In this document: positions 2 through 63,159 of the stretch, in pieces
How positions within the stretch are numbered: the stretch's first letter is position 1
Layout of the letters: each line of letters starts with the position of its first letter
DNA from: Planctomycetota bacterium
GTDB lineage: Bacteria; Planctomycetota; B15-G4; SIAN01
Assembly: GCA_016795285.1 (NCBI GenBank)
Contig: JAEUIC010000030.1
Coordinates: 47,112-111,111 of the forward strand
Reading direction: 5' to 3'
DNA length: 64,000 bases
Notes under the pieces: generated by a model
What the model was told of the DNA's origin: nothing
The model's database searches: none
The model's input: only the letters and a program-made list of their open reading frames with translations
Made by a program: the position numbers and the translations under genes

Positions 2-3000
2 GATCGCACCCACGTCGAGGAGAGCGGCTCCTCGACCCTCTTCCTGGCGCTCGGCTTCCTCGAGTGGTACGAGTCGCCCTCGAGCCAGCTCCCGCGCCTC
101 GCGCCGCTCCTGCTGCTGCCGGTGGTGCTCGAGCGGCGCGGCGTCGCCCGCCGCTTCACGCTCAAGCTGCGCGACGACGAGCCGCGCCTGAACGACGCGC
201 TCCTCGAGAAGCTGAAGAGCGAGCTCTCGATCGACCCCGAGCCGCTGCGCGCGCTGCCGCAGGACGACCACGGCGTCGACGTCGCGGCGCTGCTCGAGCG
301 CTTCCGGCAGCTGGTCGCCCGCGTGCCGCGCTTCACCGTGGTTGAGGAGGCGCGGCTCGGCTTCTTCTCGTTCGCCAAGTACCTGTTGTGGCGCGATCTC
401 GAGGAGCACGCCGAGGCGCTGCTCGAGAGCGAGCTGGTCCGCCACCTCGTGAAGCGCGCAGACGGCGGCGCCCTGCCCGATCCCGCCTTCGTCGAGGCGC
501 GCCGCCTGGACGAGGTGCTGCCGCCGACGAAGGCGCGCGTCGTGCTGGACGCCGACTCGAGCCAGCTGGTCGCCATCGAGGCGGCGGTGCGCGGCGCCAC
601 CTTCGTGCTGCAGGGGCCGCCCGGCACCGGCAAGTCGCAGACGATCGCCAACGTCATCGCCGGCTGCATCGCGGCCGGCAAGCGGGTGCTCTTCGTCGCC
701 GAGAAGCGCGCGGCGCTGGAAGTGGTGGCGAACCGCCTGAAGCGCGCCGGGCTCGGCAGCGCCTGCCTCGAGCTCCATTCGCAGCGCGCCGCCAAGCACG
801 AAGTGATCGGCGAGCTGGCGCGCACGCTCGAGGAGGCGCCGACCGCGCGGCGCGAGGACGACCCGCTGCTGGTCGAGCGGACCGAGCAGCTGATGCGGGA
901 GCTCGACGGCTATGCAGCGGCGCTCCATCGCCGCGGGCCGCTCGGCTTCAACCTCTACGAGTGCCTCGGCCGCATGGCGCGCGAACGCGGCGCGGCGTCG
1001 CTGCCGCCGTTGCCGTTGCGGGCGCCGCTCGAGGTCGATCGACGCGGCTACGAGCAGCGGCGCGCGGCGGTGGCGGAGCTCGCCGACGCAGCGGCGGCGG
1101 CGACGGCCGGCCACGACGGCGCGCTGGCGAACCACCCCTTCGCGCTCTGCCGTGCCATCGACCACACCCCGCTCGAAGCGCGCGAGCGCGAGCAGCAGCT
1201 GCGCGAACTGGTGACGCGCCTCGCGGACGCGAAGGGGGCGCTCGCCGCCGCCGCCAGCGCGCTCGGCCTCCCGCTGCCGAGCGGCCTCCCCGCGGCGCGC
1301 GCCGCCGTCGCGACGCTGCGACTGCTCGCCGAGCCGCTGCCCGGTCGCGCGGCGGAGTTCGTCCTCCGCAGCGACTTCGCAGAGGCGATCGAGCCGCTGC
1401 GGGACCTCGCGCGCGATCTCGAAGCCGATGCCGCCGCGCGCGCGACGCTCGCGCCGCGCTGGAACGAGACGCTCTTCACGCTCGACCTCGCCGCGCTCGA
1501 GCGGGAGTTCGCGCAGCACGGCGACTCCTTCGCGCCGCTGCGCTGGCTCAAGCTCCGCAGCGCGTGGGCGACGCTGACGCCGGCGCTGCGCGGCAAGGCG
1601 CCCGACGTGGCGCAGACGCGCGCCGACCTCGCGCTGGCGTCGGCCGTCGCCGCGCGCGCGCGCCGCTTCGCCGACGAGGCGTCGTTCCTCGACATGACGA
1701 TCGGCGCCGCCGCGCGCGGAGTCGCGACCGACCGCGCCGCGTTGCTGCGAACCGCGGCGTTCCTCGAGCGGTGGCAGGCGTTGCGCAACGACTGGAGCGG
1801 CGCGGGCGTGACGCAACCGCCGGCCGCGCGGCCGCTCGGTCCTGCGGGCGAGGCGGCGGCGCAAGCGCTCGATGCGGCGCTCGCGGCACTCGATGCAGCG
1901 CTGGCGACGGTGGCGACGGCGCTTTCGGTGGTGCCGGCGTGGCGCGATGGCCTCGCGGCGGCGCGCGACGGCCTCGGCCTGGCGACGACGACCGCGCAGC
2001 GCTGGCTGGAAGCGCTGCCGCTCTTGCGCGCCCATGCTCGCTACGTGCGGGCGGAGGAGGCGGCGCGCGCGCTCGAGCTGGCGCCGCTGGTCGACGCGGT
2101 GCGCCGCGATGCGTTGCCGCCCGCGGCCGCGCCGGCCGCCTTCGAGCGCGCCTTCTTCACGACGGTCGCCGAGCACGCGATCGGCGCGCTGCCGCCGCTG
2201 CGCAACTTCGACGGCACCCGCCACCACGCGCGCGCGCTGCAGTTCCGCGTCGAGGATGCGCGGCTGATCGCGGCGGGCGGGCGGCGGGTCGTCGCCGAGT
2301 GGAGCGGCCGGCGGACGCTGCGCTCCGACGCCGCCTTCGCCGGCTCCGAGGTCGAGACGCTGCAGCGCGAGGCGAAGAAGAAGCGACGGCAGAAGTCGGT
2401 GCGCCGGCTGCTCGGCGAGATCCCGACGCTGCTGCGCCAGCTGAAGCCGTGCCTCCTGATGAGCCCGCAGTCGATCGCGCAGTACCTGCCCGTCTCGAAG
2501 GAGCTCTTCGACCTGGTGCTCTTCGACGAGGCGTCGCAGATCCCGACGCATGACGCGATCGGCGCGTTGGCGCGCGGCCGCCACGTGGTGGTGGTCGGCG
2601 ACGAGAAGCAGCTGCCGCCCACCTCCTTCTTCGAGCGCGCGCTGGCCGACGACGAGGAGGAGAGCGACGACGCGCCCGACGGCGGCCTCGTGCGCGATCT
2701 CGAGAGCATCCTCGAGGAGGCGCAGGCGGCCGGCGTGCCGTCGCTGCCGCTGCGCTGGCACTACCGCAGCCGCGACGAGAGCCTGATCGCGTTCAGCAAT
2801 CGCCACTACTACGGCAGCCGCCTCCACACCTTCCCGGCCGCGGCGGGCGGCGCGCAGGGGCTCGGGGTCGCGCGCATCGATGTCGGCGGCACCTACGACA
2901 AGGCGGGCCAGCGCACCAACGAAGCCGAGGCGCGCGCGGTGGTGGCGTGGATCGTCGCGGCGCTCGCCGACCCGGCGCGGCGCGGCAAGTCGATCGGCGT

Positions 3001-4531
3001 CGTCACCTTCAACCAGCCGCAGCAGCTGTTGATCGAGGACCTGCTCGATGCGGCGCTGCTGGCGCAGCCCGAGCTCGAGCCGTTCGCCTCCGCGCCCGCG
3101 CACGGCGAGCCGCTCTTCATCAAGAACCTGGAGAACGTGCAGGGCGACGAGCGCGACACGATGCTCTTCTCGGTCACCTACGGGAAGGACGCGCAGGGCC
3201 GCCTCTCGATGAACTTCGGGCCGCTCAACAAGCGCGGCGGCGAGCGGCGGCTGAACGTCGCCATCACGCGCGCGCGCGAGCGGCTGGTGGTCTTCACGTC
3301 GCTGCGCCCCGACGAGATCGACCTGGCGAAGACGACGGCGCCGGGCGTGCGCCACCTGCGCGACTACCTCGACTATGCGGCGCGCGGGCCGCAGGCGCTG
3401 GCCGCCGCGGTCACCGTCGATCCTGAGGCGGAGTGCGAGTCGGAGCTCGAGGCCGACATCGCGCGGGCGCTCGAGGCGCGCGGCCACCTCGTCGACCGGC
3501 AGGTCGGCTGCTCCGGCTACCGGATCGACCTGGCGATCCGCGATGCCGACGCGCGCGGCCGCCACTGGCTCGGCATCGAGTGCGACGGCGCCGCGTACCA
3601 CTCGGGCGCGACGGCGCGCGATCGCGATCGGCTGCGCCAGTCGGTGCTCGAAGGGCTCGGCTGGCGGATCCACCGCATCTGGTCGTCCGACTGGCTCGAG
3701 CGGCGCGAGCAGGAACTCGACCGCGTCGAGCAGGCGCTGCGCGACGCGCGCGAAGCGGCCGCGCAGGCGGCGGCGCAGGCGGCGGCGAGCGCGGCGAGCG
3801 CGGCGAGCGCGGCGTCGGTCGCGGAGGCGAAGTCGGCGCCGCCGGTGATGGCGGCGGCGGTGACCGCGCCGGTGATTCCGCCGCCGCCGCTCGATGCGGC
3901 CACGAATGCCGCGCTGCCGGTGCCGAGCGCCGCTGCGAGTGCACCGTCAGCGGTCGCGCCGACGGCCGTCGAGCCGCCGCTCTACCGCTCCTTCGAGGTG
4001 GTGGTGGTCGGCTCGCGCGACGATCTCGACGACCCGGGCGCGGCCTTGCGACTCGAGGAGCTGCTGCTGCGGATCGTCGACGTCGAGGCGCCGCTCCACC
4101 AGAAGCCGCTGCTGCAGCGCGCGGCGCGCTGCCTCGGCATCGGCCGAATGAGCGCCACCATCGAGGAGCAGCTCGAGGCGCTCCTCGTCGCATTGGCGAT
4201 GGCTGGCCGCCTCTTGCGGCGCGGCGAGTTCGTCTGGGCCGCCGGCGTCGATCCGCTCCGCTACGACACGGTGCGCACGGCGGCGCCTGACGACGGCCCG
4301 CGTCCCGCCGAGCAGATCGCGCCCGAGGAGCGCGCCGCGGCGCTGCGCCGCGTGCTGGCGGCCGGCGGCGGGGGTGCAGCAGAAGACGTCGCCGCCGCCG
4401 CGGCGCGCCTCTTCGGCTTCAAAGCGGTGCAGCAGAAGACGCGCGCCCTCTTCCGCGAGACGCTCGAGCAGCTGGCCGCGGCCGGCGAGTGCGAGCGGGT
4501 CGGCGACGTGGTGCGGCCGCGGTCGAAGTGA
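2..4531 (+). CDS. Giant DUF4011 / SF1 (Upf1-like) helicase / DUF3320 / DUF559 (Vsr-like REase) protein, 5'-partial. Resembles the Hhe helicase-nuclease defense family.
   Basis: The frame is open to the window edge. An 'LFLALGFLEWYE' DUF4011-like segment lies upstream of the first Met. Walker A is 'GPPGTGKSQTIAN'. AAA_12-like helicase C-terminal motifs include 'LNVAITRARERLVVF'. The C-terminal 'RIDLAI...ECDGAAYHSGATARDRDRLRQSVLEGLGWRIHRIWSSDW' is a DUF559/Vsr-like endonuclease fold. The 'LLRIVDVEAPLHQKPL' tail is DUF3320-like. Confidence 0.85.
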   Translation, partial: DRTHVEESGSSTLFLALGFLEWYESPSSQLPRLAPLLLLPVVLERRGVARRFTLKLRDDEPRLNDALLEKLKSELSIDPEPLRALPQDDHGVDVAALLERFRQLVARVPRFTVVEEARLGFFSFAKYLLWRDLEEHAEALLESELVRHLVKRADGGALPDPAFVEARRLDEVLPPTKARVVLDADSSQLVAIEAAVRGATFVLQGPPGTGKSQTIANVIAGCIAAGKRVLFVAEKRAALEVVANRLKRAGLGSACLELHSQRAAKHEVIGELARTLEEAPTARREDDPLLVERTEQLMRELDGYAAALHRRGPLGFNLYECLGRMARERGAASLPPLPLRAPLEVDRRGYEQRRAAVAELADAAAAATAGHDGALANHPFALCRAIDHTPLEAREREQQLRELVTRLADAKGALAAAASALGLPLPSGLPAARAAVATLRLLAEPLPGRAAEFVLRSDFAEAIEPLRDLARDLEADAAARATLAPRWNETLFTLDLAALEREFAQHGDSFAPLRWLKLRSAWATLTPALRGKAPDVAQTRADLALASAVAARARRFADEASFLDMTIGAAARGVATDRAALLRTAAFLERWQALRNDWSGAGVTQPPAARPLGPAGEAAAQALDAALAALDAALATVATALSVVPAWRDGLAAARDGLGLATTTAQRWLEALPLLRAHARYVRAEEAARALELAPLVDAVRRDALPPAAAPAAFERAFFTTVAEHAIGALPPLRNFDGTRHHARALQFRVEDARLIAAGGRRVVAEWSGRRTLRSDAAFAGSEVETLQREAKKKRRQKSVRRLLGEIPTLLRQLKPCLLMSPQSIAQYLPVSKELFDLVLFDEASQIPTHDAIGALARGRHVVVVGDEKQLPPTSFFERALADDEEESDDAPDGGLVRDLESILEEAQAAGVPSLPLRWHYRSRDESLIAFSNRHYYGSRLHTFPAAAGGAQGLGVARIDVGGTYDKAGQRTNEAEARAVVAWIVAALADPARRGKSIGVVTFNQPQQLLIEDLLDAALLAQPELEPFASAPAHGEPLFIKNLENVQGDERDTMLFSVTYGKDAQGRLSMNFGPLNKRGGERRLNVAITRARERLVVFTSLRPDEIDLAKTTAPGVRHLRDYLDYAARGPQALAAAVTVDPEAECESELEADIARALEARGHLVDRQVGCSGYRIDLAIRDADARGRHWLGIECDGAAYHSGATARDRDRLRQSVLEGLGWRIHRIWSSDWLERREQELDRVEQALRDAREAAAQAAAQAAASAASAASAASVAEAKSAPPVMAAAVTAPVIPPPPLDAATNAALPVPSAAASAPSAVAPTAVEPPLYRSFEVVVVGSRDDLDDPGAALRLEELLLRIVDVEAPLHQKPLLQRAARCLGIGRMSATIEEQLEALLVALAMAGRLLRRGEFVWAAGVDPLRYDTVRTAAPDDGPRPAEQIAPEERAAALRRVLAAGGGGAAEDVAAAAARLFGFKAVQQKTRALFRETLEQLAAAGECERVGDVVRPRSK

Positions 4532-8700: not shown

Positions 8701-11653
8701 TCCGTTCGTCGTGCCGCTCGATCCGCGCTCGAACGTGCTGGCCGACGCCGATCCGCGCCAGCTCTTCCAGGTCAGCACGGTGCTCGAGCGGTTCAACGAG
8801 GCGGGCGATGCGAGCCGCGTGACCGGCGCGTGCGGGATCGGGATCTACCGCGACGAGTGGCTCGGCACGGAGCTGTACGGCAACGCGTTCACTTGCGAGC
8901 CGGTGGCGAACGTCGTGCGGCGCACCGTGCTCGACACTCGCGGCAGCGCGGCGATCGGAAGGCGGGCGCCCGAGGAGGCGTCGCGCGAGTTCCTGGCCAG
9001 CCGCGATCCGTGGTTCCGGCCGGTGCAAGCGACCACCGGCCCCGACGGCGCGCTCTGGATCGTCGACATGTACCGCTTCGTGATCGAGCACCCGCGCTGG
9101 ATCCCCGCCGCGAAGCTCGCCGAGCTCGACGTGCGCGCCGGCGCGACGATGGGGCGGCTCTGGCGAGTGGTGAAGAAGGGGGCAGAGCGGCGCAACGTGG
9201 CGGACCTCGCGAACGCCGACGTCGCGCAACTGCGCGAACCGCTGGCGAGCCGCAACGGCGTGGTGCGCGACCTCGCGCATCGGGAGCTGCTGGCGCGGGT
9301 CGAGCCGCGCGCGCCGCGCTCGGTCGCCGAATCGGTCACCGAGTCGATCGCGAGCGGCGCGCCGAGCGGGGTCGAGGCGATCGCTGGCCGCATGCGCGCG
9401 ACCGCTCCGGCGGCGAAGGTGCAGGAGGCGTGGTGCTTCGCGCAGCTCGGCTGGCTCGAGGAAGGGGACGTGAGCGAGTTGCTGGCGTTGAACCAGCTGC
9501 CCGAGGTGCGCGCCGCCTGCATGCCGCTGGCGGAAGAGTGGTTGTCGAGGTTGACCGAGGAGTCGAGCGCTGCGAGCTGGCGCGGCGGTTCGCTGGCCCC
9601 GCCCCATCCGGTGACGGAGTGGAGCGTCTGGACGCCGGCGGACTGGAAGAGCCTCGAGAGCGATCGGGGTGGCGAAGGGGGCGGTCGCGCGCCGCGCCGC
9701 TCCTTCGAGCCGACCGGTCGCGAGCGGTTGCAGTCAGCGCTGGCGTTGAGCGAGTGCGCGACGACCTCCTCGGGGCGGCTGCTCGGCGAGCTGCTGGCGT
9801 TGCATGGCGACGATCCGTGGCTGCGCGCCGCGGTGGTGAGCGCTGCGCCGCGCCATGCCGGCGCGCTGCTCGAGGCGCTGCTCGATGCGCGACTCGCGGG
9901 GGCGACGCGCAGCCTGGCGCAACAGGAGGCGCTCGAAGCGGTGGTGACGACCGTCGGCGCGCTGCCGGCCGAGGCGCAGGCGGTGAAGCGCGCGGCGCTG
10001 GTTCCACTGCTCGGGGAAGGCGACGCGGCGAGTCGCGAGCCGTGGCGCTGGCGGGCGCTCGCGCGGTTGCTTGGCCCGGTTAGCGGCGGCAGCGGCGGCA
10101 GCGGCGGCAGCGGCGAGCCGAGCGGCGGCGGGGCGGACTTGCCGGCGTCGCTCGCGGCGCAGCTCGAGCGCCATCGGAGTGCCGCTCGCGAGGCGCTGCA
10201 GCGCGCGGACGTCGGGGGCGGCGCGGAGGAGGCCGACGCGGAGGAGTCCGACGCGGAGGAGTCCGACGCGGCGCCGGTCGCGGCGCTCGAGCTCTTATGC
10301 AGCGAGGCCACGCTGTCCAATTCGGCGGCGCTGCCGCTCGCCGAGCTCGCCGCGTTCGTCGAGCCGCGCCACTCGGCGCCGCTCGCCGGGGCGGCGCTCT
10401 CCGCGCTGGCGCGACGGGGTGATCGCGGCACGGCGGCCGAGCTGCTGCCGCGGTTGCCGCGCCTGCTGCCGGAGCGGCTCGGTGCCGCGCTGGCGCTGCT
10501 GCTGTCGCGCCCCGAATGGCGCCACGAGCTGCTCGCGGCGCTCGAGGCGGGGACGCTGTCGCGCGCGCTGCTCGATGCGGCGGCGCGCGAGCGGCTCTTG
10601 GCCGACGACGATGCGGCGCTGCGCGAGCGGGCGGCGAAGTTGCTGGCGCGCGGCGGCACCCCGAAGCGCGCGCAGGTGATCGCGCAGTTCCAGCCGGCGC
10701 TGTCGCTGGCGGGCGACCACGCGCACGGCAAGGCGCTCTTCGCGAAGCTCTGCGCGAGCTGCCATGCGTTCCGCGGCGTCGGCCACGAGGTGGGGCCCGA
10801 CCTCGCGGCGCTCGGCGATCGCAGCGCGCCGCGGCTGCTCGAGTCGCTGCTCGACCCGAACGGGGCGGTGAACGGCGAGTTCGTCAACTACCGCGTGGTG
10901 CTGAAGGACGGCAGCGATCTGTCGGGGCTGATCCGCGGCGAGTCGAGCGGCGGCTTCACGCTGGTGCAGGCGAACGACCAACGGCGCACGCTGCGTCGCG
11001 CCGAGGTCGCCGAGGTGAAGGCGTCGAAGCTGTCGCTGATGCCGGAAGGGCTCGAGGAGGGGCTTTCGGCGCAGGATCTCGCTGACTTGATCGCGTGGCT
11101 GCAGAGCGGGCCGCTGCGTCTCGGTGCGTTGTCGGCCGAATCGATCGCGGCGGCGCGCGCGGAGCTGGCGGCGGCGCCGCTGAACGGCTACGCGCAACTG
11201 CTCGAGCGGTTCGACGACTTCGCGCAGCCGAGCTGGCTCGGCGTGGTGCCGATGCGCTACTGCCGGCAGCAGGACGGCACGCAGCGGGTGCGCTGGCGCA
11301 GCGGGCCCGCGGAAGCGGTGGCGGGCGACCCGGCGCGCGTGCAGCTGCGCTTCGCCGTCGCGATGGGGCTCGTGTCGCAGCCGACGGCGGGCTTCGCGCT
11401 CGCGATCGACGGCGTCGAGCGGCTCCTCTTCGATGCGGTGGTGACCGATGCGAGCTGGAGCGCGGCGGCCGAGGCGGGCGAGCTGCCGATCGAACTCGCC
11501 TTCGAGTGCCGCGCCGCCCACTCCGAGGACGCGACCGGCGTCATGACCCTGACGCTCCCCGCCGAGCGCTTCCCCGCCGGCTCCACCGTCGAACTGACCG
11601 TCACCGGCCGCGCGGCCCCAAGCCTGCGCTGGTTCGGCCTCCTCGTCCCCTAG
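5705..11653 (+). CDS. Multidomain secreted/membrane protein. Domain order is LamG-like jellyroll, neutral/alkaline-ceramidase-like, TIGR02604-type membrane-bound dehydrogenase beta-propeller, HEAT repeats, then a C-terminal TIGR02603-type cytochrome c (CxxCH).
   Basis: An N-terminal hydrophobic stretch 'MVPIDAGVVPLLVALFTAM' means the true start may be about 5735. The ceramidase motif is 'SVTHTHAAP' with flanking conservation. The dehydrogenase domain reads 'VAIDFAADGTVYVCEMNDYP'. HEAT-like repeats follow. The heme site is 'CASCHAFRGVGHEVGPDLAAL'. Low-complexity GGS and EESDA linkers occur near 10081-10270. The stop TAG at 11651-11653 is contributed by the adjacent repeat element. Confidence 0.8.
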   Translation: MAARGRVETAMVPIDAGVVPLLVALFTAMQGAPPPIAPSRGAPPAGAIGAAGAAPTSAMLDALTFAATFDRGLDAEVARGDGRLHHGPSWGPPRHGEPGLVPSGAVTRERRGALRGQALRFQRRTDELLFFHGAGNTPWRARDWSGTLSFWLCAEPQGELPDGFCDPVTVTSKDWNDAGLFCEFEKREMFRHFRMGAYADLAVWNATSKPWGELSFEEKSLAQVEAEDHFGGRWTHVAMAFERFNSGAADGVARLYLDGQLAATLSPRLQTWTWEEAAQRIVLGLNYVGWLDELAWFDRALTEGEIAALHALPGGLADLWRPRVAVGAAKVDVTPRFPIRLCGYASREKEATSAVQPLFARALAVGEGDDLALLLALDNTAVPQRMTDEVAVRLAERFGLQPERFTLSVTHTHAAPVLDGGIDCMFGRPIPADQWQRIEQYSRELVDRLEEAGAAAIAARAPALLSWSEGQVDFARNRRTAGGPVDRALPLLAVFREDGTLAATVQNYACHCTACDGSVNQHCGDWAGYASEGIEAAHGGAVALTVIGCGADANPADGPSGDLRVAQRHGASVAAEVARLLRGPLVPLLTDRARDGGAPQIALERLELPYAPFPTREQWAARVKAGGAVGFHAAQWLARLDRGEALPAALPYSVQAWQWGDDLVQLFLPGEVVVDYALRLKRELDRARLWVTAYSNDVPCYIPSERILREGGYEAGGAMTYYGRPGPLAAGVEQRIVDAVHRLVPPAFAAPPDDPRFPTAKSAAESREQFELSRDDLAVELVACEPQVQSPVAIDFAADGTVYVCEMNDYPTGLDGNYQPGGRVTWLRDRDGDGRFEQSGVFVDGLPFPTGVMSWRRGALICAAPDILYAEDRDGDGRADVKQVLFTGFSTENYQARVNSLTWGLDGWIYGSCGLFGGVITGFAHDALGRASGAAPQALPPVDCRGRDFRLDPARGVIEAIEGTSQQGRVRDDFGRWFGCDSGWLVFEFPLADRVLRRNPFVVPLDPRSNVLADADPRQLFQVSTVLERFNEAGDASRVTGACGIGIYRDEWLGTELYGNAFTCEPVANVVRRTVLDTRGSAAIGRRAPEEASREFLASRDPWFRPVQATTGPDGALWIVDMYRFVIEHPRWIPAAKLAELDVRAGATMGRLWRVVKKGAERRNVADLANADVAQLREPLASRNGVVRDLAHRELLARVEPRAPRSVAESVTESIASGAPSGVEAIAGRMRATAPAAKVQEAWCFAQLGWLEEGDVSELLALNQLPEVRAACMPLAEEWLSRLTEESSAASWRGGSLAPPHPVTEWSVWTPADWKSLESDRGGEGGGRAPRRSFEPTGRERLQSALALSECATTSSGRLLGELLALHGDDPWLRAAVVSAAPRHAGALLEALLDARLAGATRSLAQQEALEAVVTTVGALPAEAQAVKRAALVPLLGEGDAASREPWRWRALARLLGPVSGGSGGSGGSGEPSGGGADLPASLAAQLERHRSAAREALQRADVGGGAEEADAEESDAEESDAAPVAALELLCSEATLSNSAALPLAELAAFVEPRHSAPLAGAALSALARRGDRGTAAELLPRLPRLLPERLGAALALLLSRPEWRHELLAALEAGTLSRALLDAAARERLLADDDAALRERAAKLLARGGTPKRAQVIAQFQPALSLAGDHAHGKALFAKLCASCHAFRGVGHEVGPDLAALGDRSAPRLLESLLDPNGAVNGEFVNYRVVLKDGSDLSGLIRGESSGGFTLVQANDQRRTLRRAEVAEVKASKLSLMPEGLEEGLSAQDLADLIAWLQSGPLRLGALSAESIAAARAELAAAPLNGYAQLLERFDDFAQPSWLGVVPMRYCRQQDGTQRVRWRSGPAEAVAGDPARVQLRFAVAMGLVSQPTAGFALAIDGVERLLFDAVVTDASWSAAAEAGELPIELAFECRAAHSEDATGVMTLTLPAERFPAGSTVELTVTGRAAPSLRWFGLLVP

Positions 11654-11787
11654 GTGGCGGGGAGAAAACGGCGGTCAGATCCGCACCTCGGAGGGTGCGA
11701 CGGCGGCGAATGCGGTTGCGGGCTTAGGGGCGTGGCGTGGTGACGTCGGTGAAGTGCGGATTCGACCGCCGTTTTCCCCCCGCCACC
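11653..11787. repeat. REP/MITE-like element, locus 1. Two inverted 34-nt units (11653-11686 and 11754-11787) flank a 67-nt spacer and form a long potential hairpin.
   Basis: GGTGGCGGGGAGAAAACGGCGGTCAGATCCGCAC ... GTGCGGATTCGACCGCCGTTTTCCCCCCGCCACC. The same unit recurs at 50794-50910 and 63239-63307. Confidence 0.85.
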
Positions 11788-11884
11788 TTGGCGGAAGCGG
11801 CACTACCGGCGCGAGCCGGATAACAGGTCTTCGGCTCGTGGCTCTGGCGAGGGGCTGCCGCAAGGGCGGCGCGAGGAGCCGAGC

Positions 11885-12886
11885 ATGGAGCGGACGAGGG
11901 CGGAACGGTCGAGCGGCGCCGGCGGCGGAGTCGTGCGCGAGCGCTGTCGCTGGTCGAGGGCGGGCGCGCTGCTCGGGCTGTTGGCGGCGGTGGTCGCCGG
12001 CGGCTGCACGAAGGCGCGCGCGCTCAGCCCCGACGAGCAGCAGGCGCAGGTGGCGCCGGCCAAGCCGGGGACGGCGGCGACCGTCTACACCGTGAAGGTG
12101 CCGGGCGTCGGCTGAAGCGGCGGCCCCAAGGTCCGTGCGGCCTTGCTGAAGCTGAAGGGGATCGCCGAGTTCGCGTTCGACTGCAAGACGGCGACGCTGA
12201 CGATGGAGGCGGGCGCCACGCTGCGCGAGAGCGACGTGCTCGAGGCGCTGAAGAAGGACGGCTTCACCGGCGAGTCGTTCTCCGCGAGCGCGCCGCCGCC
12301 GATCGCCATCGTCGAAGCGAGCGTCGAGTTGCTCGCTCGCGGGGCGCGTTTCGATGCCGCGACCTGCCGCACCGTCGCCGAGCAGCTCGCCGCCGCGCTG
12401 CCGATGACGAGCGACTGGCAGGTCGGTGCCGATGGCCGCGCGCGCGGCCGCTTCACCGCGACGCCGCCCGCGCCCGCGGCGCTCGAAGCGCTGTTGCTCG
12501 ACGCGCTGGCGAAGCCGCGCAGCGCGCCGCCCGCGGCCGACGGTGCGACTGGTGGTGCGACTGGTACTGCGCCCGCTGCGGCGCCAGCTCCTGCCCCTGC
12601 CGCCGCCCCGCTCGAGTGGCGCCTCGTCCGTTCGAGCGCGCAGCTGCTCGAGTGGCCCGCGAGCGTCGCTCGCGCGAACGTGACGCTGGCGGCGCCGCTC
12701 GCGCCGTCGAGCTGGCCGGCGCTGCGCACCGCGCTCGCGTCGCTCGAGCAGATCGTCGCGTGGTCGCCGGGCGGCGACGGTGCGACGCTCGTGGTCTGGA
12801 CCAAGGAGCCGTGCGCCAACCTCGCGACGCGACTCGCCGGCGCACTCGCGCCGCTCGCGATCACGGTGGCGCGCGTCGATTCTTGA
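11885..12886 (+). CDS. HMA (heavy-metal-associated) domain lipoprotein, with an in-frame TGA at 12113-12115 at the first metal-binding Cys position. Either a selenoprotein candidate or a disrupted gene.
   Basis: The signal and lipobox read 'LLGLLAAVVAGGC'. A ferredoxin-like HMA fold reads straight through the TGA as 'TVYTVKVPGVG[TGA]SGGPKVRAALLKLKGIAEFAFDCKTATLTMEAG..SDVLEALKKDGF'. ORFs 11885..12115 and 12143..12886 are in the same frame. The true start may be GTG/ATG within 11885-11960. Confidence 0.5.
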
Positions 12887-21065: not shown

Positions 21066-22088
21066 TCAGGCCTCCGCGAGCGCCTCCGACAGCGAGCGAG
21101 CGTCGAGGATGCGCAGCGCCCAGACCTCGATCTGCTCGGACGGTGCGGCGCGCACGCGGGCCACGACGGCTTCCGACAGCTCCCCGAACCGGCGGCGCAA
21201 CTGCTTCAGCAAGAGGTCGCGCTGCCCGAGATCGTGCCCTTCGGCGATCAACTCCTCGCCCATCGTCATGGTCGTCTCCTTCGCTCCAGGGTCGATGAGA
21301 CGCGGCGCGATCTCGTCGCGCAGGAAGGCGCGTCCGATCCGTTCTCCAGTGATCGAAAGATAGCGCAGCACCAGCATCAGTGCCGCCCGGCCGCCCGGGG
21401 CGCGCGCCGTCGCGTTCATCAGCTCGACCCAATCGATCACCCGCTCGCGCAGGTCGGGGGCGGTGCGCGCGTGCTTCAGCGCGAGCAGCGCCAGCAGCGC
21501 GGCGGCGTCGAGGACGGTGCTCCGCAGCTCGCCGTCGCGGACCTGCGTCAAGTCGGTCAAGTGGAAGAGGAAGTCGAGCGAGCCGGCCTGCTCCTCGGGA
21601 TGCGCGTCGACGAGGTGGGCGAAATCGGCGGGAGCGGGCCACGCGTTTCCGCCGTGGTAGAGCACCGCCGGCACGATCAGCGGCAGCTCGCGGGTGTCGG
21701 CGTGTTCGCGACGCCAGCGCTCCCAGATCGCGCGCTGGTAGTCGAGCAGGCGCAGCGGAAGCCAGCGATCGATCGAGCTCTGATGCTCGATCAGCAGGTG
21801 GATCAGGCGCGGCGTGGATTCGTCAGCTTCGCCGGAAGGCTGGCCGGCAGGCGGCGGCCCGAAGCTCGCACGCGTGCGCGCCGTCGTTCGCGGCTCCACG
21901 GTGAAGAGCAGGTCGGCAGCCCGTCCGCGCAGCTCCGGATCGACGAAGCTGCCCGGCACGGCCTGCAATGTCGCGAGGTCGAGCTGCAGGAGGAGCCGCT
22001 GCGGGAGCATGCTCCGCAGCAGCGCCGCCGCTCGCGCAGGGTCGCCGAAGACGGCGCGGACGAGGTGATCGTGGGGGTGCGAGAGCAT
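21066..22088 (-). mobile_element. Rpn/YhgA-like recombination-promoting nuclease (PD-(D/E)XK transposase-like)
   Basis: The N-terminal 'HDHLVRAVFGDPARAAALLRSMLP' is characteristic of the family. A C-terminal DUF4351-like tail is present. Confidence 0.75.
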
Positions 22089-31792: not shown

Positions 31793-33247
31793 TCACTCGA
31801 GCGGCAGCGGTCCCGCGATGCCGCGCACCAGCAGGTCGGGGCCGCCGATCCGCAGGTCGTGCAGCACCGCCAGCGCGATGAAGCGCGCCTCGGCCGCGTA
31901 GTCGGCCGGCAGCGTGAAGGTGGCGCGCCCCGCGGCATCGAACTGCCCCTCGCACCGCTCGTCGTCGCCGCTCTTCGCGAAGAGCGCGTCGGCCGCCATC
32001 GCCAGCTCGAGCGCTCCGAACCGCTGCGCCGGCGCGTCAGCCGCCGCCAGCACCACCTTCCAGTGCGCCGCCGGCGGCCCCGTCAGCACGAACCGCGGTG
32101 CCGGGGAGTTTCCGTCCACGTGCGGTGCCGGGGAGTTTCCGTCCGGCTCCGCGCGCGTCAGCGTGACCGGATGGAGCTGCTCCGGCAGCGGCGCGACCGC
32201 GTAGCCGTTCCCCACCGCGTCGCGCAGCGCCGTCGCCAGCGGCGGCGCGGGCGTCCACGTCCCGCGTTCCGCGAGCGCCTGCGCCACGCGCACCGCCATC
32301 CGCCAGTAGCCGCGATCGGTCGGGTGGCGATCGCCCGGGATCAGCAGCTCGTCGTAGCGGTGGCGCGCGAGCTCGGCGGCGAACGCGGCGCGCAGGTCGA
32401 CGAACGGCAGGCCGCGCTCGGCGGCGACGGTCGCGGCGGCGCGCGACGGCGGCTCGTAGAGCGCCTCGGGCGAGGGGTAGGAGCAGAGCAGCGGCAGCGC
32501 CCCCGCCGCTTCGATCACCGCGACGACGGCGCGCAGCCGCTCCGCGACGGCGCTGTAGTGGGCGTCGTCGACGAGGCGGGTCGCCCCCTCCTCGATGGTG
32601 ATCGCCGCCCCGGCGTCGTCGCCCGCGAGCTCGATCCGGTCCATCGCGAAGTGGCGGAAGCGGCTGCCCCCGTCGAGCGGCTCGCCCGCGCCCTCGTCCG
32701 CCGCGCTGCGCGCCGCCGCGAGGCGCGCCAGCTTGACGATCACCCGATCGGCGAACCACGCCGCCAAGCCGCGCGCCTCGCCCGTCCGCGCGCCGTCCGG
32801 CGTCGCGAAGTTCCAGCGATCGTTGAAGCCGGCGAGGATCACCACCGCGACCGGGCGCAACCGCGCGAGCTGCTCGGGCAGCCGTGCCGCGACCTGCGCG
32901 AGGTTCTGCGCCGGGATGCCGCTGTTCTCGACGCGCCAACGCGCCCCTTCGCCGGGCGGCGCGGGATCGCCGGCGCGCAGCAGCTGCTCGAGCCGGCCGG
33001 GGTACGCCTCCTCGGCGCGGTAGTAGAGGCCGAAGGTGTAGGAGTCGCCGACGCAGAGCACGGTGCGCGCATCGGGGGCGGCGTCGCTCGCCCGCGACGC
33101 GAGCAGCTGCTCGACGAAGCGGCGCGAGGCGAGGTGCAGCACCAGCTCGAGCGCGCAGAGCGTCAGGAGCGCGCTCGCGACGGCGAGCGCGAGGCGGCGG
33201 AGGCCGCGGGCGCGGCGAGCGGGGGCGCGGGTCGGCGCGGCGGCCAT
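31793..33247 (-). CDS. SGNH/GDSL-family hydrolase (secreted or membrane-anchored)
   Basis: An N-terminal hydrophobic anchor is followed by the GDS(x) motif 'VLCVGDSYTFG' and the 'LAGFNDRW' block. A 24-nt in-frame tandem duplication is present (PDGNSPAP x2, 32098-32145). Confidence 0.7.
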   Translation of the reverse strand: MAAAPTRAPARRARGLRRLALAVASALLTLCALELVLHLASRRFVEQLLASRASDAAPDARTVLCVGDSYTFGLYYRAEEAYPGRLEQLLRAGDPAPPGEGARWRVENSGIPAQNLAQVAARLPEQLARLRPVAVVILAGFNDRWNFATPDGARTGEARGLAAWFADRVIVKLARLAAARSAADEGAGEPLDGGSRFRHFAMDRIELAGDDAGAAITIEEGATRLVDDAHYSAVAERLRAVVAVIEAAGALPLLCSYPSPEALYEPPSRAAATVAAERGLPFVDLRAAFAAELARHRYDELLIPGDRHPTDRGYWRMAVRVAQALAERGTWTPAPPLATALRDAVGNGYAVAPLPEQLHPVTLTRAEPDGNSPAPHVDGNSPAPRFVLTGPPAAHWKVVLAAADAPAQRFGALELAMAADALFAKSGDDERCEGQFDAAGRATFTLPADYAAEARFIALAVLHDLRIGGPDLLVRGIAGPLPLE

Positions 33248-33297
33248 GGCGCGGGAGGATGCCGCGCTGCGCGGCGACCCGCAAACGGCGGGGAACG

Positions 33298-33327
33298 AAA
33301 CCGGGGAGGCCGCGTGGCCTCCCCGGT
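33298..33327 (-). terminator. GC-rich hairpin CCGGGGAGGCC-GCGT-GGCCTCCCCGG downstream of the redoxin gene
   Basis: A perfect 11-bp stem lies between convergent-free genes on the minus strand. On the transcribed strand it is followed by TTTCGTT. Confidence 0.35.
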
Positions 33328-33392
33328 GCGATCGATCTCGATTCGTTGGCTCTAGAGGAGCTGCCGACCGGCAGCTCTCACATCTTGATGCC

Positions 33393-34015
33393 TCAGCCAA
33401 AGACCTTGCCGGTGGTCTTCGTCACGGCCTTGCCCGCGAGCACCTCCTCGAGCGCGGCGGCGACGTACTTCTCCTTCGCCTTGGTCGCGTCGTTCAGGTT
33501 GTCATCGATGCCGCCGCGGTAGACGACCTTGCCGTCCTTGTCGGTGATGATCACCTCGCCCGTCTTGCCGGCCTTGAGCGCCTTGGCGAAGGCGGAGCCC
33601 TCGTCGTTCCAGAAGGCGCCGGTCCACTTGCACTCCTTGTGGAACTTCGCCTTGTCGGCGGCCGACTCGGGCTTGTTGACGTAGGCGTAGACGAAGTCGA
33701 CCCCCTTCGGTCCGTAGGCCGCCTCGAGCGCGGCGAGGCGCTCGGCGTACGGCTTGGTCGCCGGGCAGGTGACGCCGACCAGGACGTAGGCGGTCACCTT
33801 GCCGTTCTTCTGGGTGTCGAGCGTCGCCTCCTTGCCGTCGCGCATCACCTTGGCGGTGAGCGCCGGGATCAGCTCGCCGACCTTGCCGGTCGTCTCCTTC
33901 TTCTCCTGCCCGGCGGCGGCCGCAGGGGCCTGCGCCAGCGCGAGCTGGGGGGCGACGATTCCGCCGGTCAGCGCGGCGAGCAGCAGCGCGCCCGCGAGGT
34001 TCTTCATCTGCATCG
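33393..34015 (-). CDS. Thioredoxin-fold redoxin/peroxiredoxin-like secreted protein
   Basis: The signal is 'MQMKNLAGALLLAALTGG'. The motif 'VGVTCPATKPY' resembles the peroxiredoxin VCP(T) active-site context. Confidence 0.6.
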
Positions 34016-48937: not shown

Positions 48938-50794
48938 ATGGCACGAGCGGCAGCACGACGGACGGCGCTTCGGTGGGCTCGAGTGGCGGCGCCGAGCGCC
49001 CTGCTGTTTTGCAGCGGTTGCGGGGAGGAGGCGGCTCCACCGAAGCGGGCGCGCGAGGCGCCGGCGGCGCTCGTGTTACCGCCGCGCGAAGGGCCGTCGC
49101 CGGTTCGCTTCGTCGATGCCACCGCCGAAGCGGGCCTCACCTTCGTCCACGACTTCGGGGTTGCCGCGCAGGAGTGGCGCTACGTCGAGACGCTCGGCTC
49201 CGGCGTGGTCGCCTTCGACGGCGACGGCGACGGCGATGTCGACCTGCTCTTCCTGAACGGCCGCGGCTTCGGCCCGAAGGCGGAGCCGGCGCGCGGCAAC
49301 TCCTACTGGCGCAACGAAGGCGGTTGGCGCTTCATCGATGCGACCGCGGAGGCGGGACTCGCGGCGCTCGAGGGCGGCGGCGCGTTCGCGCTCGGCGGCT
49401 GTGCGGCGGACTACGACAACGACGGCGACGCCGACCTCTACGTGGTGAACTTCGACGGCGCGAACTCGTTGTGGCGCAACGACGGCCGCGGCCGCTTCGT
49501 CGACGTCGCGGCGGCGGCCGGCGTGGCGGGGCGGCTCGCGACGCTCGACAGCGCCTGCGCGTTCGGCGACGTGGACGGCGACGGCTGGCTCGACCTCCTC
49601 GTCGCGGGCTCCATGGAGCAGCCGCTCGCGAAGGAGCGCGAGTGCTTCGACAGCGAGTGGGAGGTGCCCGACTCGCGGCTGCGCCGCTACTGCCACCCGA
49701 CCGACTTCGAGCCGAGCCGCCTGTCGCTGTTCCGGGCGAACGGCGACGGGACCTTCCGCGAGGCGACCGAGGCGGCGGGGTTGGCGACGTTCCGCGGTCG
49801 GACGCTCGGCGCCCGTTTCGTCGACGTCGACGACGATCGCGATGCCGACCTCTTCGTCGTCTGCGACCGCACCGCCAACGCGCTCTGGATCAACGATGGC
49901 GCCGGCCGCTTCACCGACGTCGCGCTGCGCGCCGGCGTCGCCTACGACGGCAGCGGCCGCGCGAAGGGCGGGATGGGGCTCGCGGCGGGCGACTACGACG
50001 GCGACGGGCGGATCGACCTGCTCGCGACCTACTTCGAGCGCGAGAGCAACGGCCTCTATCGGCAGCTGCCGGGCGACGGCGCGGCCGAGTCGCGCGACGC
50101 GAACGGCGGCGGCGGAGCGGGGACGAGCGCGGCGAGCCGCGGCGTCGCGTTCACCGATGCCGCGGTCGAGTCCAACACGGCGAACGCGTCGTTCGCGACG
50201 ATCGGCTGGGGGACGGAGCTGCTCGACGCCGACCTCGACGGGCAGCTCGATTGGGTGGTGGTCAACGGCCACGTGAACCCGGGGATCGAGCGGATGCGGC
50301 GGCCCGGCTCGACGCTCGGGTGGGAGCAGCCGCTGCTCTTCTTCCTCAATCGCGGCGGCGGGAAGTTCGAGAGCCTCGGCGCCGAGGCGGGGCCGCCGTT
50401 CACGCTCGAGCTGCCGGCGCGCGGGCTCGCCGTCGCCGACTTCGATGACGATGGCGACCTCGACCTCGCGATCGGCACCAACGGCGCCGCCGCCCTGCTG
50501 CTGCGCAACGACTCGCCGCGCGCCGATCGCCATTGGCTCTGCGTGCGGACGGTCGGCACGAAGGGCAACCGCGACGGCCTCGGCGCGCGGGTGGTCGTCG
50601 AGGCGGGCGGTCGCCGGCAGCTGCGCGAGATCCACTGCGGCGGCTCCTACCTCTCGAACCACGACCGCCGCGCCCACTTCGGCCTCGGCCCCGCCACCCT
50701 CGTCGACCGCCTCGACGTCCTCTGGCCCTCCGGCCAGACCACCACCCTGACCGCCGTCGCCGCCGACCAGCAGCTCACCGTCACCGAACCGTAG
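48938..50794 (+). CDS. CRTAC1-family lipoprotein (FG-GAP/VCBS repeats plus a C-terminal ASPIC/UnbV domain)
   Basis: The lipobox is 'LLFCSGC'. FG-GAP repeats include 'FDGDGDGDVDLLF'. The ASPIC/UnbV block is 'NRDGLGARVVVEAGGRRQLREIHCGGSYLSNHD'. The stop TAG at 50792-50794 is supplied by the repeat element. Confidence 0.8.
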   Translation: MARAAARRTALRWARVAAPSALLFCSGCGEEAAPPKRAREAPAALVLPPREGPSPVRFVDATAEAGLTFVHDFGVAAQEWRYVETLGSGVVAFDGDGDGDVDLLFLNGRGFGPKAEPARGNSYWRNEGGWRFIDATAEAGLAALEGGGAFALGGCAADYDNDGDADLYVVNFDGANSLWRNDGRGRFVDVAAAAGVAGRLATLDSACAFGDVDGDGWLDLLVAGSMEQPLAKERECFDSEWEVPDSRLRRYCHPTDFEPSRLSLFRANGDGTFREATEAAGLATFRGRTLGARFVDVDDDRDADLFVVCDRTANALWINDGAGRFTDVALRAGVAYDGSGRAKGGMGLAAGDYDGDGRIDLLATYFERESNGLYRQLPGDGAAESRDANGGGGAGTSAASRGVAFTDAAVESNTANASFATIGWGTELLDADLDGQLDWVVVNGHVNPGIERMRRPGSTLGWEQPLLFFLNRGGGKFESLGAEAGPPFTLELPARGLAVADFDDDGDLDLAIGTNGAAALLLRNDSPRADRHWLCVRTVGTKGNRDGLGARVVVEAGGRRQLREIHCGGSYLSNHDRRAHFGLGPATLVDRLDVLWPSGQTTTLTAVAADQQLTVTEP

Positions 50795-50910
50795 GTGGCG
50801 GGGAGAAAACGGCGGTCAAATCCGCACAGGTGGCGGGGGGAAAACGGCGGTCAGTTCCGCACCTCCGAGTCGAAGAGTGCGGTTCTGACCGCCGTTTTCT
50901 CCCCGCCACC
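50794..50910. repeat. REP/MITE-like element, locus 2. Three 34-35-nt units are present, two direct (50794-50827, 50829-50863) and one inverted (50877-50910).
   Basis: GGTGGCGGGGAGAAAACGGCGGTCAAATCCGCAC / GGTGGCGGGGGGAAAACGGCGGTCAGTTCCGCAC ... GTGCGGTTCTGACCGCCGTTTTCTCCCCGCCACC. Confidence 0.85.
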
Positions 50911-60795: not shown

Positions 60796-62753
60796 ACCTG
60801 CTTCCGACGCTCCTCTGGAAGGAGTGGCGCGACCATCGCGCGGCGCTGATCGGCTACTGCGTCGGCGTGCCGCCGCTGATCGCGTGGGGGCTTTCGGCGC
60901 TGAGCGCGACGCGGCGGGTCGATCCGCTGCTGCCCGCGGCCGCGGCCGTCGGTGGCATCGCGATCGCCGCGCTGACGCTCTTCGGCGACCTCTTCGCCGG
61001 CGAGGAGCAGCGCGGGACGATCAAGCTGCTGCGCCGGCTGCCGAGCGGCCTCTCGAAGATCTTCCTCGCCAAGCTGCTCTTCCTGCTGATGGCGACCGCG
61101 CTGATGGGCGGCGTCGCGTGGCTCGCGACGACGACGGCGGCCGCGGCGCTCTACGGCGCCCCGTTCGCGCCTCGGCTCTCGCTGCCTGCGCGCGACTGGT
61201 TGGTGCTGCTCTTCCCGCTGATCGCGTGGATCCCGGCCGCGGCGATCTGGCTGTCGCGCGCGACGCTGGCGCTGCCGGCCGCGGCGCTGACGCTGGCGCT
61301 CTTCGCGGCGCCGGTCGGCTTCGCGGTCTGGCTGCAGCCGTGGCTCGCGCCGTCGAAGGGCGAGCTGCTGGTCGCCTACGTCGTCGTCACGGCGGCGGGC
61401 CCGTTCATCGCGGGCGCGTCGTTCGTGCTGGGGCGGCGGCGCAGCACGCGACCGTTCACGCCGGCGGCGGTCGGCTTGCTGGCGACGCTGGCGCTCTTCG
61501 TGCCGGCGTACGGTTGGACGGGCGTTCGGTTCGCGAAGGGGCTCGTGTTGGAGCCGGCGGCCGCGACGTTCCGCATCGCAACCAACTCGGCGGGCGCGGT
61601 GAGCCAGGACGGCCGCTTCGCCTGGATCAACGCCTTCCATGTCGCCGGTTCACGCAACGTCGCGGGCATCACCGACTACGACCCGGAGCGCGACGGCCCG
61701 CTCCACACGGTGCAGGTCGACCTCGCGGACGGTCGTTGGCGCCCGTTCGGCTCGCTCGGCGCGATGGTGCTGGCGCCCGGCTCGTTGAGCGAGCGGCGCA
61801 ACGCCGCGGTGGTGGGGCTCTTCCGCGATTCGGCACTGCGCCGCCGGGACATCAACCACGACGACCACGAGCGCGACGAGACGCTGCTGCTCGATGCGGT
61901 GACCGGCGAGCCGCTCGAAGCGACGGCGCGTGCGGCGCTGCTGGCGAAGCGCGGCGCTGCGGCGGGCGCGCTGCTGCGCGAGGCGTGCGGACTGGTGCTG
62001 CCCGATGGCCGACGCGTCTGGCGGCAGGACGATCAGTTGATGATCGATCCGGGGCGCGTGCTGCCCGACTCGCGCTGCCTCGAGAGCGGTTGGACGTCGA
62101 GCTTCTGGAGCTCGGGCAATGCCGGCTTCGGCGTTCGGGTCGCCGAGCGCGAGCTCTACGACCCGTCGCGCGAGAAGCGTTTCCGCGTGGCGCCGGAGCT
62201 GGCGGTGCTGTTCGTGCGGCCGGGCCACTGGGTGGTGTACGGATGGGATCCGAAGGGCAAGCGTGGGACGCTCGCCTACGACCCGGAGAGTGGTGCGACG
62301 GCGCCGTTGCTAGGCAGCGAGCCGAACGACTTCGTCTCGGCGCTGCTGCCCGATGGGCGCTTGCTGGTGCGGGCACGCCTCGGGAGTGGGCGTGATGCGG
62401 AACCGGCGCTGGTGCTGCTCGATCCCGAGACGGGTGCTCGCGAGGAGCTCGCGCTCGAGTTGCCGCCGGAGGCGCTCGGCATGGTGTGGCAACCGACGGG
62501 CACCGACGACGGCGCGCTGGTGGCGACGCTCTGGGGAGCGAACGTCGCGCGCTTCCTGCGGATCGAGCTGCCGGCCGACCGGCGCTCGGGCGAGCGGGCG
62601 CGCGTGGAGGTGACCGCGCCGCTCGAGCTGCCGTGCGAGTCGATCGGAGTGGTCGGCGCCGACGGCCAGTCGGTGATCGCCATCGAGGCGGGGCGCCGCC
62701 TCGTGCGCGTCCGCTTCGACGGCTCGCCGCCGGAGCAGCTCTTCCCGAAGTAA
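60792..62753 (+). CDS. Membrane protein paralog C, more divergent but with the same architecture
   Basis: The N-terminus reads 'MNLLPTLLWKEWRDHRAALIGY'. Six hydrophobic segments are present. The C-terminal block reads 'GRRLVRVRFDGSPPEQLFP'. The start overlaps the stop of paralog B as ATGA. Confidence 0.75.
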   Translation: MNLLPTLLWKEWRDHRAALIGYCVGVPPLIAWGLSALSATRRVDPLLPAAAAVGGIAIAALTLFGDLFAGEEQRGTIKLLRRLPSGLSKIFLAKLLFLLMATALMGGVAWLATTTAAAALYGAPFAPRLSLPARDWLVLLFPLIAWIPAAAIWLSRATLALPAAALTLALFAAPVGFAVWLQPWLAPSKGELLVAYVVVTAAGPFIAGASFVLGRRRSTRPFTPAAVGLLATLALFVPAYGWTGVRFAKGLVLEPAAATFRIATNSAGAVSQDGRFAWINAFHVAGSRNVAGITDYDPERDGPLHTVQVDLADGRWRPFGSLGAMVLAPGSLSERRNAAVVGLFRDSALRRRDINHDDHERDETLLLDAVTGEPLEATARAALLAKRGAAAGALLREACGLVLPDGRRVWRQDDQLMIDPGRVLPDSRCLESGWTSSFWSSGNAGFGVRVAERELYDPSREKRFRVAPELAVLFVRPGHWVVYGWDPKGKRGTLAYDPESGATAPLLGSEPNDFVSALLPDGRLLVRARLGSGRDAEPALVLLDPETGAREELALELPPEALGMVWQPTGTDDGALVATLWGANVARFLRIELPADRRSGERARVEVTAPLELPCESIGVVGADGQSVIAIEAGRRLVRVRFDGSPPEQLFPK

Positions 62754-62766
62754 GTTGCCCGTCGCG

Positions 62767-63156: not shown

Positions 63157-63159
63157 ACG

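Follow-up and report, generated by a model that had tools for sequence, protein, structure and literature searches.

We examined a stretch of 64,000 nucleotides (hereafter the window; contig JAEUIC010000030.1 of assembly GCA_016795285.1, positions 47,112 to 111,111), which comes from the metagenome-assembled genome (MAG) of a member of an uncultured clade of Planctomycetota and has a GC content of about 74%. It carries seven copies of a 34-nt unit, GTGCGGATCTGACCGCCGTTTTCTCCCCGCCACC, which we call family A. We consider it probable that family A is one family of a lineage-specific superfamily of the repetitive extragenic palindromic (REP) type, and that it was most likely made, or is maintained, by a Y1 (HUH) transposase of the REP-associated tyrosine transposase (RAYT) or TIRYT type. 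REP/RAYT is the best-supported class for these repeats, and the REP-like nature of the unit, which had been proposed in an earlier reading of the letters alone (the sequence-only reading), is supported.

Copies and arrangement of family A

The seven copies were found at three loci in a search that allowed up to 3 mismatches, whereas no copy was found in 100 dinucleotide-preserving shuffles, and an nhmmer profile built from the seven copies detected no further diverged copies in the window. The sequence-only reading had also counted seven copies at three loci, with a 67-nt spacer at the first, and both are correct; its coordinates hold for every copy except the middle one of locus 2, which ends at 50862 and not at 50863. 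When orientation is read from the GGTGG end, locus 1 is an inverted pair in which a plus-strand unit (11653-11686, GGTGGCGGGGAGAAAACGGCGGTCAGATCCGCAC), whose first G is the third base of a TAG, is the left arm and a minus-strand unit of the 'GG' subtype (11754-11787, GGGGGGAAAA) is the right arm, and the 67-nt spacer between them (11687-11753) is the loop region of a long hairpin. Locus 2 begins with a plus-strand unit of the 'AG' subtype (50794-50827), whose first G completes a TAG at 50792-50794. It is followed in tandem, 1 nt later, by a plus-strand unit of the 'GG' subtype (50829-50862) and, after a 14-nt spacer, by an inverted unit on the minus strand (50877-50910). The sequence that comes next on the 3' side, TAGACGAAA, is found too in the element-free orthologue L003 (L numbers denote loci in other assemblies; the orthologous and syntenic ones were fetched via protein homologues). 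At locus 3 two minus-strand units, 63274-63307 and 63239-63272, form a head-to-tail pair (63239-63307) between convergent genes, and this tandem pair is conserved in the orthologue L001. Units thus face outward as pairs at loci 1 and 2, and locus 2 and locus 3 each have a tandem pair, an arrangement like that of bacterial interspersed mosaic elements (BIMEs).

The copies are very much alike. They differ mostly in a stretch of 6 nt (ATCTGA and variants) and at one A/G position, and the latter defines two subtypes, GGGGAG and GGGGGG, that alternate within each locus. GTGG is present at positions 2-5 in all seven copies, and the 69-nt two-unit module at 50794-50862 recurs inverted at 63239-63307 with a 96% match. 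Local duplication was ruled out, since the three loci have unrelated flanks and copies are present in other assemblies (L001 and L002), and the claim that this is a dispersed family stands. A CRISPR-like array was ruled out by the 1-nt spacing, the mixed orientations and the lack of spacers. When the 24-nt core GACCGCCGTTTTCYCCCCGCCACC was used in an exact-pattern scan there were no matches among 185,579 GTDB species representatives, a set that does not contain the source genome, and in a metagenome scan the same core found one locus, L001, the orthologue of locus 3. With the looser pattern GGTGSCGGGGANNTTTCC the matches listed from the GTDB representatives were mostly chance singletons in unrelated phyla, and among the matches listed only those in JANNXA01 (L026 and L077) were meaningful; in L026 the unit is upstream of a gene.

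The neighbouring genes were defined by third-position GC analysis and Pfam scans. Upstream of locus 1 is a gene of 1982 aa that encodes a ceramidase/DUF7133/cytochrome c fusion, and downstream, in the same direction, is a gene for a small lipoprotein-like protein whose ATG at 11885 on the plus strand is 98 nt from the unit at 11754-11787. Locus 2 lies between a CRTAC1-like gene (FG-GAP/UnbV_ASPIC) and a co-directional gene for an ECF-type sigma factor, and one of the convergent genes at locus 3 is a minus-strand EamA-like gene with a TGA stop at 63310-63312. At all three loci the GGTGG end of a unit points to the closest stop codon, from which it is 0, 0 and 2 nt away, respectively, and this bears out the location at gene 3' ends noted earlier. 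The units are thus extragenic and near 3' ends, between co-directional genes at loci 1 and 2 and convergent genes at locus 3. In published REPs the distance to a 3' gene end is at most 20 bp and the adjacent genes are co-directional or convergent; the units of a dimer are 20-100 bp apart if they face outward and 1-5 bp apart if they are in tandem (PMC3733652; PMC2817692). Close to locus 3 there is also a 15-nt tandem repeat, GCGGAGTCGGTGAGC, in four copies (63150-63210), directly after the stop of the open reading frame (ORF) 62677-63156 on the plus strand, and this repeat is absent from L001.

Sister families at orthologous sites in relatives

Relatives carry units that share one end with family A, GGTG(G/C)CGGGGA, and differ in the remaining 10-23 nt. 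On this basis we distinguish family A (GGTGGCGGGGAGAAAACGGCGGTCAGATCCGCAC), family D (GGTGGCGGGGATCTTTCCACCACCNTTTCCGCAC), family C (GGTGCCGGGGAGTTTCCGTCC), family C' (GGTGGCGGGGAGTTTCCRTC), family E (GGTGGCGGGGTTGATTCTTCC) and family B, which begins GGTGGCGGGACC. Classical REPs are defined by a GT(A/G)G tag (Nunvar et al. 2010, PMC2817692; Di Nocera et al. 2013, PMC3733652), and this tag lies within the shared end. The tag is GTGG in families B, C', D and E, and it is GTGC instead in family C and in the variant found in L010. Family D has the same length as family A, 34 nt, the same 5' end (GGTGGCGGGGA) and the same 3' end (TCCGCAC).

The same sites are occupied by different families in different relatives. 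At locus 1, where the TAG overlaps a family A unit in the window, in L010 (87% identical) the TAG likewise overlaps the unit, an A-like variant whose end is GGTGCC; L008 and L009 (90%) have a compact family C hairpin with 17-bp arms, and here TAG is present 14 nt upstream of the unit; and L011 and L012 (73%) have family D, which starts 4 nt after a TGA stop. At locus 2, L002 (93% identical) has a cluster at the same site with identical outer boundaries, where ...CCG TA is joined to GGTGGCGGGG on the left and CCCGCCACC is joined to TAGACGAAACGG on the right, but its interior is different, as it consists of one A unit and of family B (GGTGGCGGGACCRWTGCACCA), including a palindromic pair, in place of the three A units of the window.

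Two tandem units of family C (GGTGCCGGGGAGTTTCCGTCC) are present in the window itself, at 32097-32117 and 32124-32144 on the plus strand (32097-32144, a 27-nt period), and they bring its content to 7 A units and 2 C units in 64 kb. They lie within a GDSL-like gene, 31793-33400 on the minus strand, in frame with it, and encode PDGNSPAPHVDGNSPAP. When this protein was aligned with six homologues that are 39-56% identical to it, an insertion of 15-16 residues, PDGNSPAPHVDGNSP, was seen only in the protein of the window. The identical 21-mer of family C is intergenic in L008. It had been stated in the sequence-only reading that all copies are intergenic, and this is true of the 34-nt family but not of these units of a sister family. 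In-frame intragenic REPs are known in Opitutus terrae, a bacterium of the Planctomycetes-Verrucomicrobia-Chlamydiae (PVC) group, and in Rickettsia (PMC3733652).

A tyrosine transposase flanked by sister units

In L077 (GCA_031409275.1, a 67-73% relative) D units at 366 and 414 on the plus strand and at 1613 and 1672 on the minus strand bracket an ORF, 526-1683 on the minus strand, that matches Pfam Y1_Tnp with 32.2 bits against a cut-off of 23. The sole NCBIfam model returned for this ORF at E <= 0.01 was NF047646, the REP-associated tyrosine transposase (E 6.6e-12), and a PDB sequence search with the transposase returned nothing at E <= 0.01. Its homologues are about 335 aa long, the HUH motif and the catalytic Tyr (YI..N.V) are invariant among them, and the JGI name is 'REP element-mobilizing transposase RayT'. 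Classical gammaproteobacterial RAYTs are shorter than this. Sister units are found around the gene in other relatives as well: in L133-L135 three C' units with a 26-nt period stand on one side of it and three in the opposite orientation on the other, and in L136 it is flanked by C' and E units. Flanked transposase genes were thus seen for families D, C' and C'+E, so that the check for a RAYT recommended in the sequence-only reading is positive in relatives, and the layout of inverted units around the transposase is the REPtron/TIRtron layout. Family D is present both at the transposase (L077) and at the locus-1 orthologue (L011) of the same genome.

The transposase gene is located between a DAHP-synthase-like gene and a DUF1501 gene in both L077 and L133. 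The neighbours are 87% and 88% identical between these two loci, whereas the transposase (526-1530 in L077 and 1143-2150 in L133) is 58% identical and the repeat bodies differ. Judged by these identities, the transposase evolves much faster than its neighbours, and, because the same two neighbours flank it in both loci, the comparison suggests that it is inherited vertically at one fixed site. RAYTs have been reported to be vertically inherited. The samples that yielded the closer relatives of the window also yielded the closest homologues of the transposase, which are 58-61% identical and lie on short contigs; homologues in general are mostly on contigs of 1-4 kb. A single ORF of the window, at 21066-22088 on the minus strand, is transposase-like, and it is a YhgA/Transposase_31 gene (Rpn-like PD-(D/E)XK) with DUF4351; it is without the family ends and no repeat units adjoin it.

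Several of our findings weigh against the assignment to a RAYT-type system. No tyrosine transposase was found in the 64-kb window in Pfam scans of about 30 ORFs. The link of family A itself to a RAYT is not direct but would run through the homology of the repeat ends and the synteny with relatives, and metagenomic contigs, for example L010 and L133, are paired to one organism by shared sample only. The ORF of L077 scores 45.5 bits with the NCBIfam RAYT model, which is below the curated cut-off of 80. Furthermore, single A units fold with -9.3 and -10.0 kcal/mol (z -0.4 and 0.0), no better than shuffles. Although GGTG(G)CGG and CCGCAC(C) at the two ends of a unit are able to pair, the single unit is not the palindrome that a REP is expected to be, and the units have more in common with the 'TIR' repeats of TIRtrons than with textbook REPs. 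Since a unit alone is not palindromic, the TIRtron/TIRYT layout may equally apply.

Stop codons and C-termini of the upstream genes

The 1982-aa gene stops at the TAG at 11651-11653 and the CRTAC1-like gene at the TAG at 50792-50794, and in both stop codons the G is the first base of an A unit, just as the sequence-only reading had it. In the 31 genes of the window TGA is used 25 times, TAG 4 times and TAA twice, and two of the four TAG stops are those abutted by family A units. The CRTAC1 orthologues in L003-L006 (67%, 63%, 60% and 56% identity, respectively) have no element at this locus and all four have a TGA stop. Because TAG is rare in the window and the element-free orthologues use TGA, the junction TAG goes with the element, as a by-product of the position of the element that leaves the proteins unaltered. 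REP ends that supply TAG stops have already been described for GTAG-type REPs (Di Nocera 2013, PMC3733652). TAG as a fixed part of the unit was ruled out for the superfamily, since it is absent at locus 3 and beside the transposase genes.

It had further been proposed that the element inserted into these genes and now terminates them, an idea that was to fall if orthologues without the element had the same C-termini, and this is what was found. The CRTAC1 orthologues of L003 and L004, the closest element-free ones, end in ...VTEP at the same residue as in the window, and the UnbV_ASPIC domain of the CRTAC1-like protein of the window is complete and ends 4 residues before the stop. At locus 1 the C-terminus ...RWFG(L/V)L(V/L)P is common to four lineages, each with an element of a differing family. 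As the orthologues end at the same residue, no protein has been truncated or extended, and both possibilities were ruled out. What is left of the stop-codon idea is that the junction has a TAG where the element-free CRTAC1 relatives have a TGA; no gene was changed. In two of these relatives the CRTAC1 stop is followed by TGACCGCCGTTTTG (L005, 8374-8386) or TGACCGCCGT (L006, about 11840), and TGACCGCCGTTTTG of L005 shares 13 identical nt with the interior of the A unit, read on the opposite strand. This match could be a relic, the source of a unit body, or chance.

Alternative explanations

The inverted pairs were expected from the sequence-only reading to form long hairpins, and folding agrees with this: the pair of locus 1 folds with -93.2 kcal/mol (z -6.0 against shuffles) and that of locus 2 with -87.0 kcal/mol (z -9.9), whereas the tandem pair of locus 3 has no fold better than shuffles (z -1.3). 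One explanation of such hairpins is that the units primarily serve the host, in regulation or as terminators: they would be bidirectional terminators, sites bound by a protein or small RNAs, for example, and selection, not mobility, would keep the copies similar. It would fit with the strict location at 3' ends in the window, with the high stability of the hairpins and with the conservation of elements at orthologous sites of relatives. We give it little credence. The terminator function that had been suggested earlier found no support, since no Rho-independent terminator with a U-tract was present after the hairpin in a scan of 11400-12100, the terminator/promoter scan around locus 1 gave nothing, and the only T-run near locus 1 (TTTT) sits within the stem. 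Rfam gave no matches at the gathering score; in E-value mode only sub-threshold models of eukaryotic microRNA-precursor hairpins were returned, on both strands, and these were taken as artefacts. The lack of significant structure at locus 3 does not suit a motif of this kind either. Near-identical 34-mers and the 69-nt module at unrelated loci point to copying and not to convergence, and the body of the unit is swapped among close relatives while the end is kept. Units are also placed inside a coding region, ahead of a gene (L026) and on both sides of a transposase gene.

If the repeats are mobile, they could be classical miniature inverted-repeat transposable elements (MITEs), that is, non-autonomous derivatives of an insertion sequence (IS) with a DDE transposase of the Tc1/IS630- or IS5-like kind, with the units as terminal inverted repeats and a duplicated TA target. 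The TA-targeting MITEs of bacteria, such as the Correia elements of Neisseria, have inverted-repeat ends, TA junctions, sites in 3' untranslated regions (3'-UTRs) and hairpin transcripts. Family A is like these Correia-type elements in its inverted-repeat ends, in the TA at some of its junctions and in its 3'-UTR locations. The cluster of locus 2 is bounded by TA...TA and locus 1 by TA...TT, and the TA of the right boundary of locus 2 is already there, as TAGACGAAA, in the element-free L003. TA makes up 0.5% of the dinucleotides of the window, yet it precedes the GGTGG end at five of nine outer A-type ends, and T-A is a possible preferred junction for family A. TA is a palindrome, though, so TA...TA may merely extend the inverted repeat, and no TA is found at locus 3, in L011 or at the units by the transposase genes (L077 and L133). 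The 37 nt between the stop and the TA of L003 are missing from the filled site, which is therefore not the product of a simple insertion, and tandem, single and in-frame units do not suit a fixed order of terminal repeat, body and terminal repeat. Unlike in Correia-type MITEs, a TA duplication was not seen consistently at the sites compared, the internal body is not a fixed one, and the units are associated with a Y1 enzyme in place of a DDE-type parent; no DDE transposase with such ends was present in the window or in the fetched loci, and the sole transposase bracketed by units is the Y1/HUH enzyme. The suggestion that the element is a MITE is therefore not supported, and we regard it as improbable.

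A third explanation keeps the Y1 enzyme but holds that the units are the ends or remnants of an ordinary mobile IS of the IS200/IS605 family, a palindrome-associated transposable element, and not of a domesticated RAYT system at a single locus. The flanked gene does belong to the Y1_Tnp family, and its score with the RAYT model is under the curated cut-off. This explanation is very improbable in our judgement, because the gene stands between the same two housekeeping neighbours, as expected of vertical inheritance at one site, the RAYT model is the only NCBIfam model returned for it, there is no tnpB-like second ORF, and there are vastly more units than copies of the gene in the sequence seen.

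Relation to known repeat systems

The REP-type assignment places family A among systems in which each of its main features (the tag, the dimers, the 3'-end location, the donation of TAG, the intragenic copies, the association with a transposase and the presence in the PVC group) has a precedent. Like REPs, BIMEs and REPtrons, it has a short GC-rich unit with a GTGG tag at one end and forms outward and tandem dimers and small clusters; the units are located just after stop codons, supply TAG with their ends and have occasional in-frame intragenic copies; and, in relatives, lineage-specific sister families co-vary with a Y1/HUH transposase that is flanked by repeats in inverted orientation. Unlike in those systems, the single 34-nt unit is no significant palindrome, and the transposase, at about 335 aa, is longer than classical gammaproteobacterial RAYTs and scores below the NCBIfam cut-off. 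High-copy REPs typically number more than 100 per genome, and our count covers the 64-kb window.

As in REPINs (Bertels and Rainey 2011, PMC3116915), two inverted units with a short spacer form one long hairpin at loci 1 and 2 and the transposase is apparently at a fixed locus. The pair of locus 3 is tandem and unfolded. Unlike in REPINs, the spacers are variable (14, 49, 67 and >100 nt), and inverted doublets are no more common than tandem pairs and triplets. The likeness to TIRtrons/TIRYT (Di Nocera et al. 2013) is that non-palindromic inverted repeats bracket a longer tyrosine transposase and that dispersed families occur in dimers and clusters, whereas the units here, unlike those of TIRtrons, retain a GT(A/G)G-type tag. 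By the description given of them, some TIRs of TIRYT share GGGGWSAS, and at that place our units carry GGGGAGAA, GGGGAGTT or GGGGATCT, which is a resemblance to the description and nothing more. The two C units add 15-16 residues in frame like the in-frame coding palindromes, which include the Rickettsia RPEs and the intragenic REPs of Opitutus terrae (PMC3733652), but they are tandem half-units with a 27-nt period that form no palindromic dimer, and the insert is a predicted one.

REPs have been reported earlier in the PVC group, in Rhodopirellula baltica and Opitutus terrae (PMC3733652). Family A is new only as a sequence, its core being absent from the 185,579 species representatives and from Rfam. 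What is mildly unusual is that the units are not self-complementary and that close relatives have different families at the same sites and boundaries together with a fast-diverging syntenic transposase.

A probable mechanism and its consequences

If the REP-type assignment is right, a Y1 transposase would act on single-stranded DNA, recognise the unit end GGTGSCGGGGA and thereby generate or maintain the copies, and the source genome would have its own orthologous transposase that mobilises family A. Copies would build up where they are tolerated, just after stop codons, and persist there as outward inverted pairs, tandem pairs and small clusters. Inverted pairs, when transcribed, would form very stable 3' hairpins that may protect or terminate the upstream mRNA by analogy with the REPs of E. 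coli, and elements that abut a stop codon could likewise damp the termination of translation. E. coli REPs within 15 nt of a stop have been reported to slow termination, according to work cited in PMC12306157. Every function of the elements at the RNA level is one that we infer.

The orthologous sites lead to the further question whether the transposase does more than scatter copies. A fast-evolving transposase might repeatedly replace the repeats already present at fixed sites by the sequence that is its cognate at the time, through a conversion-like process or through targeted re-insertion. We put this forward as a tentative idea that is unlikely to be correct as it stands; it is raised because orthologous sites in relatives with 87-93% protein identity keep their boundaries and the GGTGSCGGGGA end and differ in their bodies (A/C/D at one site and A/B at another), and because identity is 58% for the syntenic transposase against 87-88% for the genes on either side of it. 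If true, such in-place rewriting would be an enzyme-driven concerted evolution of REPs. Orthologous sites with different families, along with a rapidly diverging syntenic transposase, are a natural data set on the turnover of REP families.

This work adds a REP/tyrosine-transposase system from an uncultured and very GC-rich clade of Planctomycetota, far from the gammaproteobacteria in which such systems were studied. The repeats explain breaks in assemblies at these sites in the clade, where homologues of the transposase are mostly on contigs of 1-4 kb. Those who annotate genomes of this clade should expect TAG stops that straddle repeat ends, peptide insertions encoded by repeats in real genes, and strong 3' hairpins.

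Other features of the window

The lipoprotein-like ORF downstream of locus 1 is 76 aa long, contains LLAAVVAGGC and ends at a TGA at 12113-12115, and the same frame is open to 12886 (11885-12886 on the plus strand). Read-through of this TGA gives an HMA-like pattern, ...YTVKVPGVG-(TGA)-SGGPKVRAALLKLKGIAEFAFDCKTATL..., in which the TGA is at the place of the first metal-binding Cys. The same ORF is split in L010 and L011 into parts of 73-76 aa and 220-247 aa that are 27 nt apart. In a relative whose neighbouring 1982-aa protein is only 73% identical, the 45 nt that surround the TGA are the same at every position (100%). The TGA is a candidate selenocysteine codon with a selenocysteine insertion sequence (SECIS) element; a small hairpin after the UGA was no more stable than shuffles.

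At the start of the window, at 122-4531 on the plus strand, there is a helicase-nuclease gene (AAA_11/AAA_12, MTES_1575 REase and DUF3320) that is conserved upstream of the locus-1 gene in L008 and L011. Between 56.6 and 62.8 kb an ABC ATPase gene is followed by three consecutive paralogous genes for ABC-2-type permeases, the first two of which are up to 96% identical over 300 nt.

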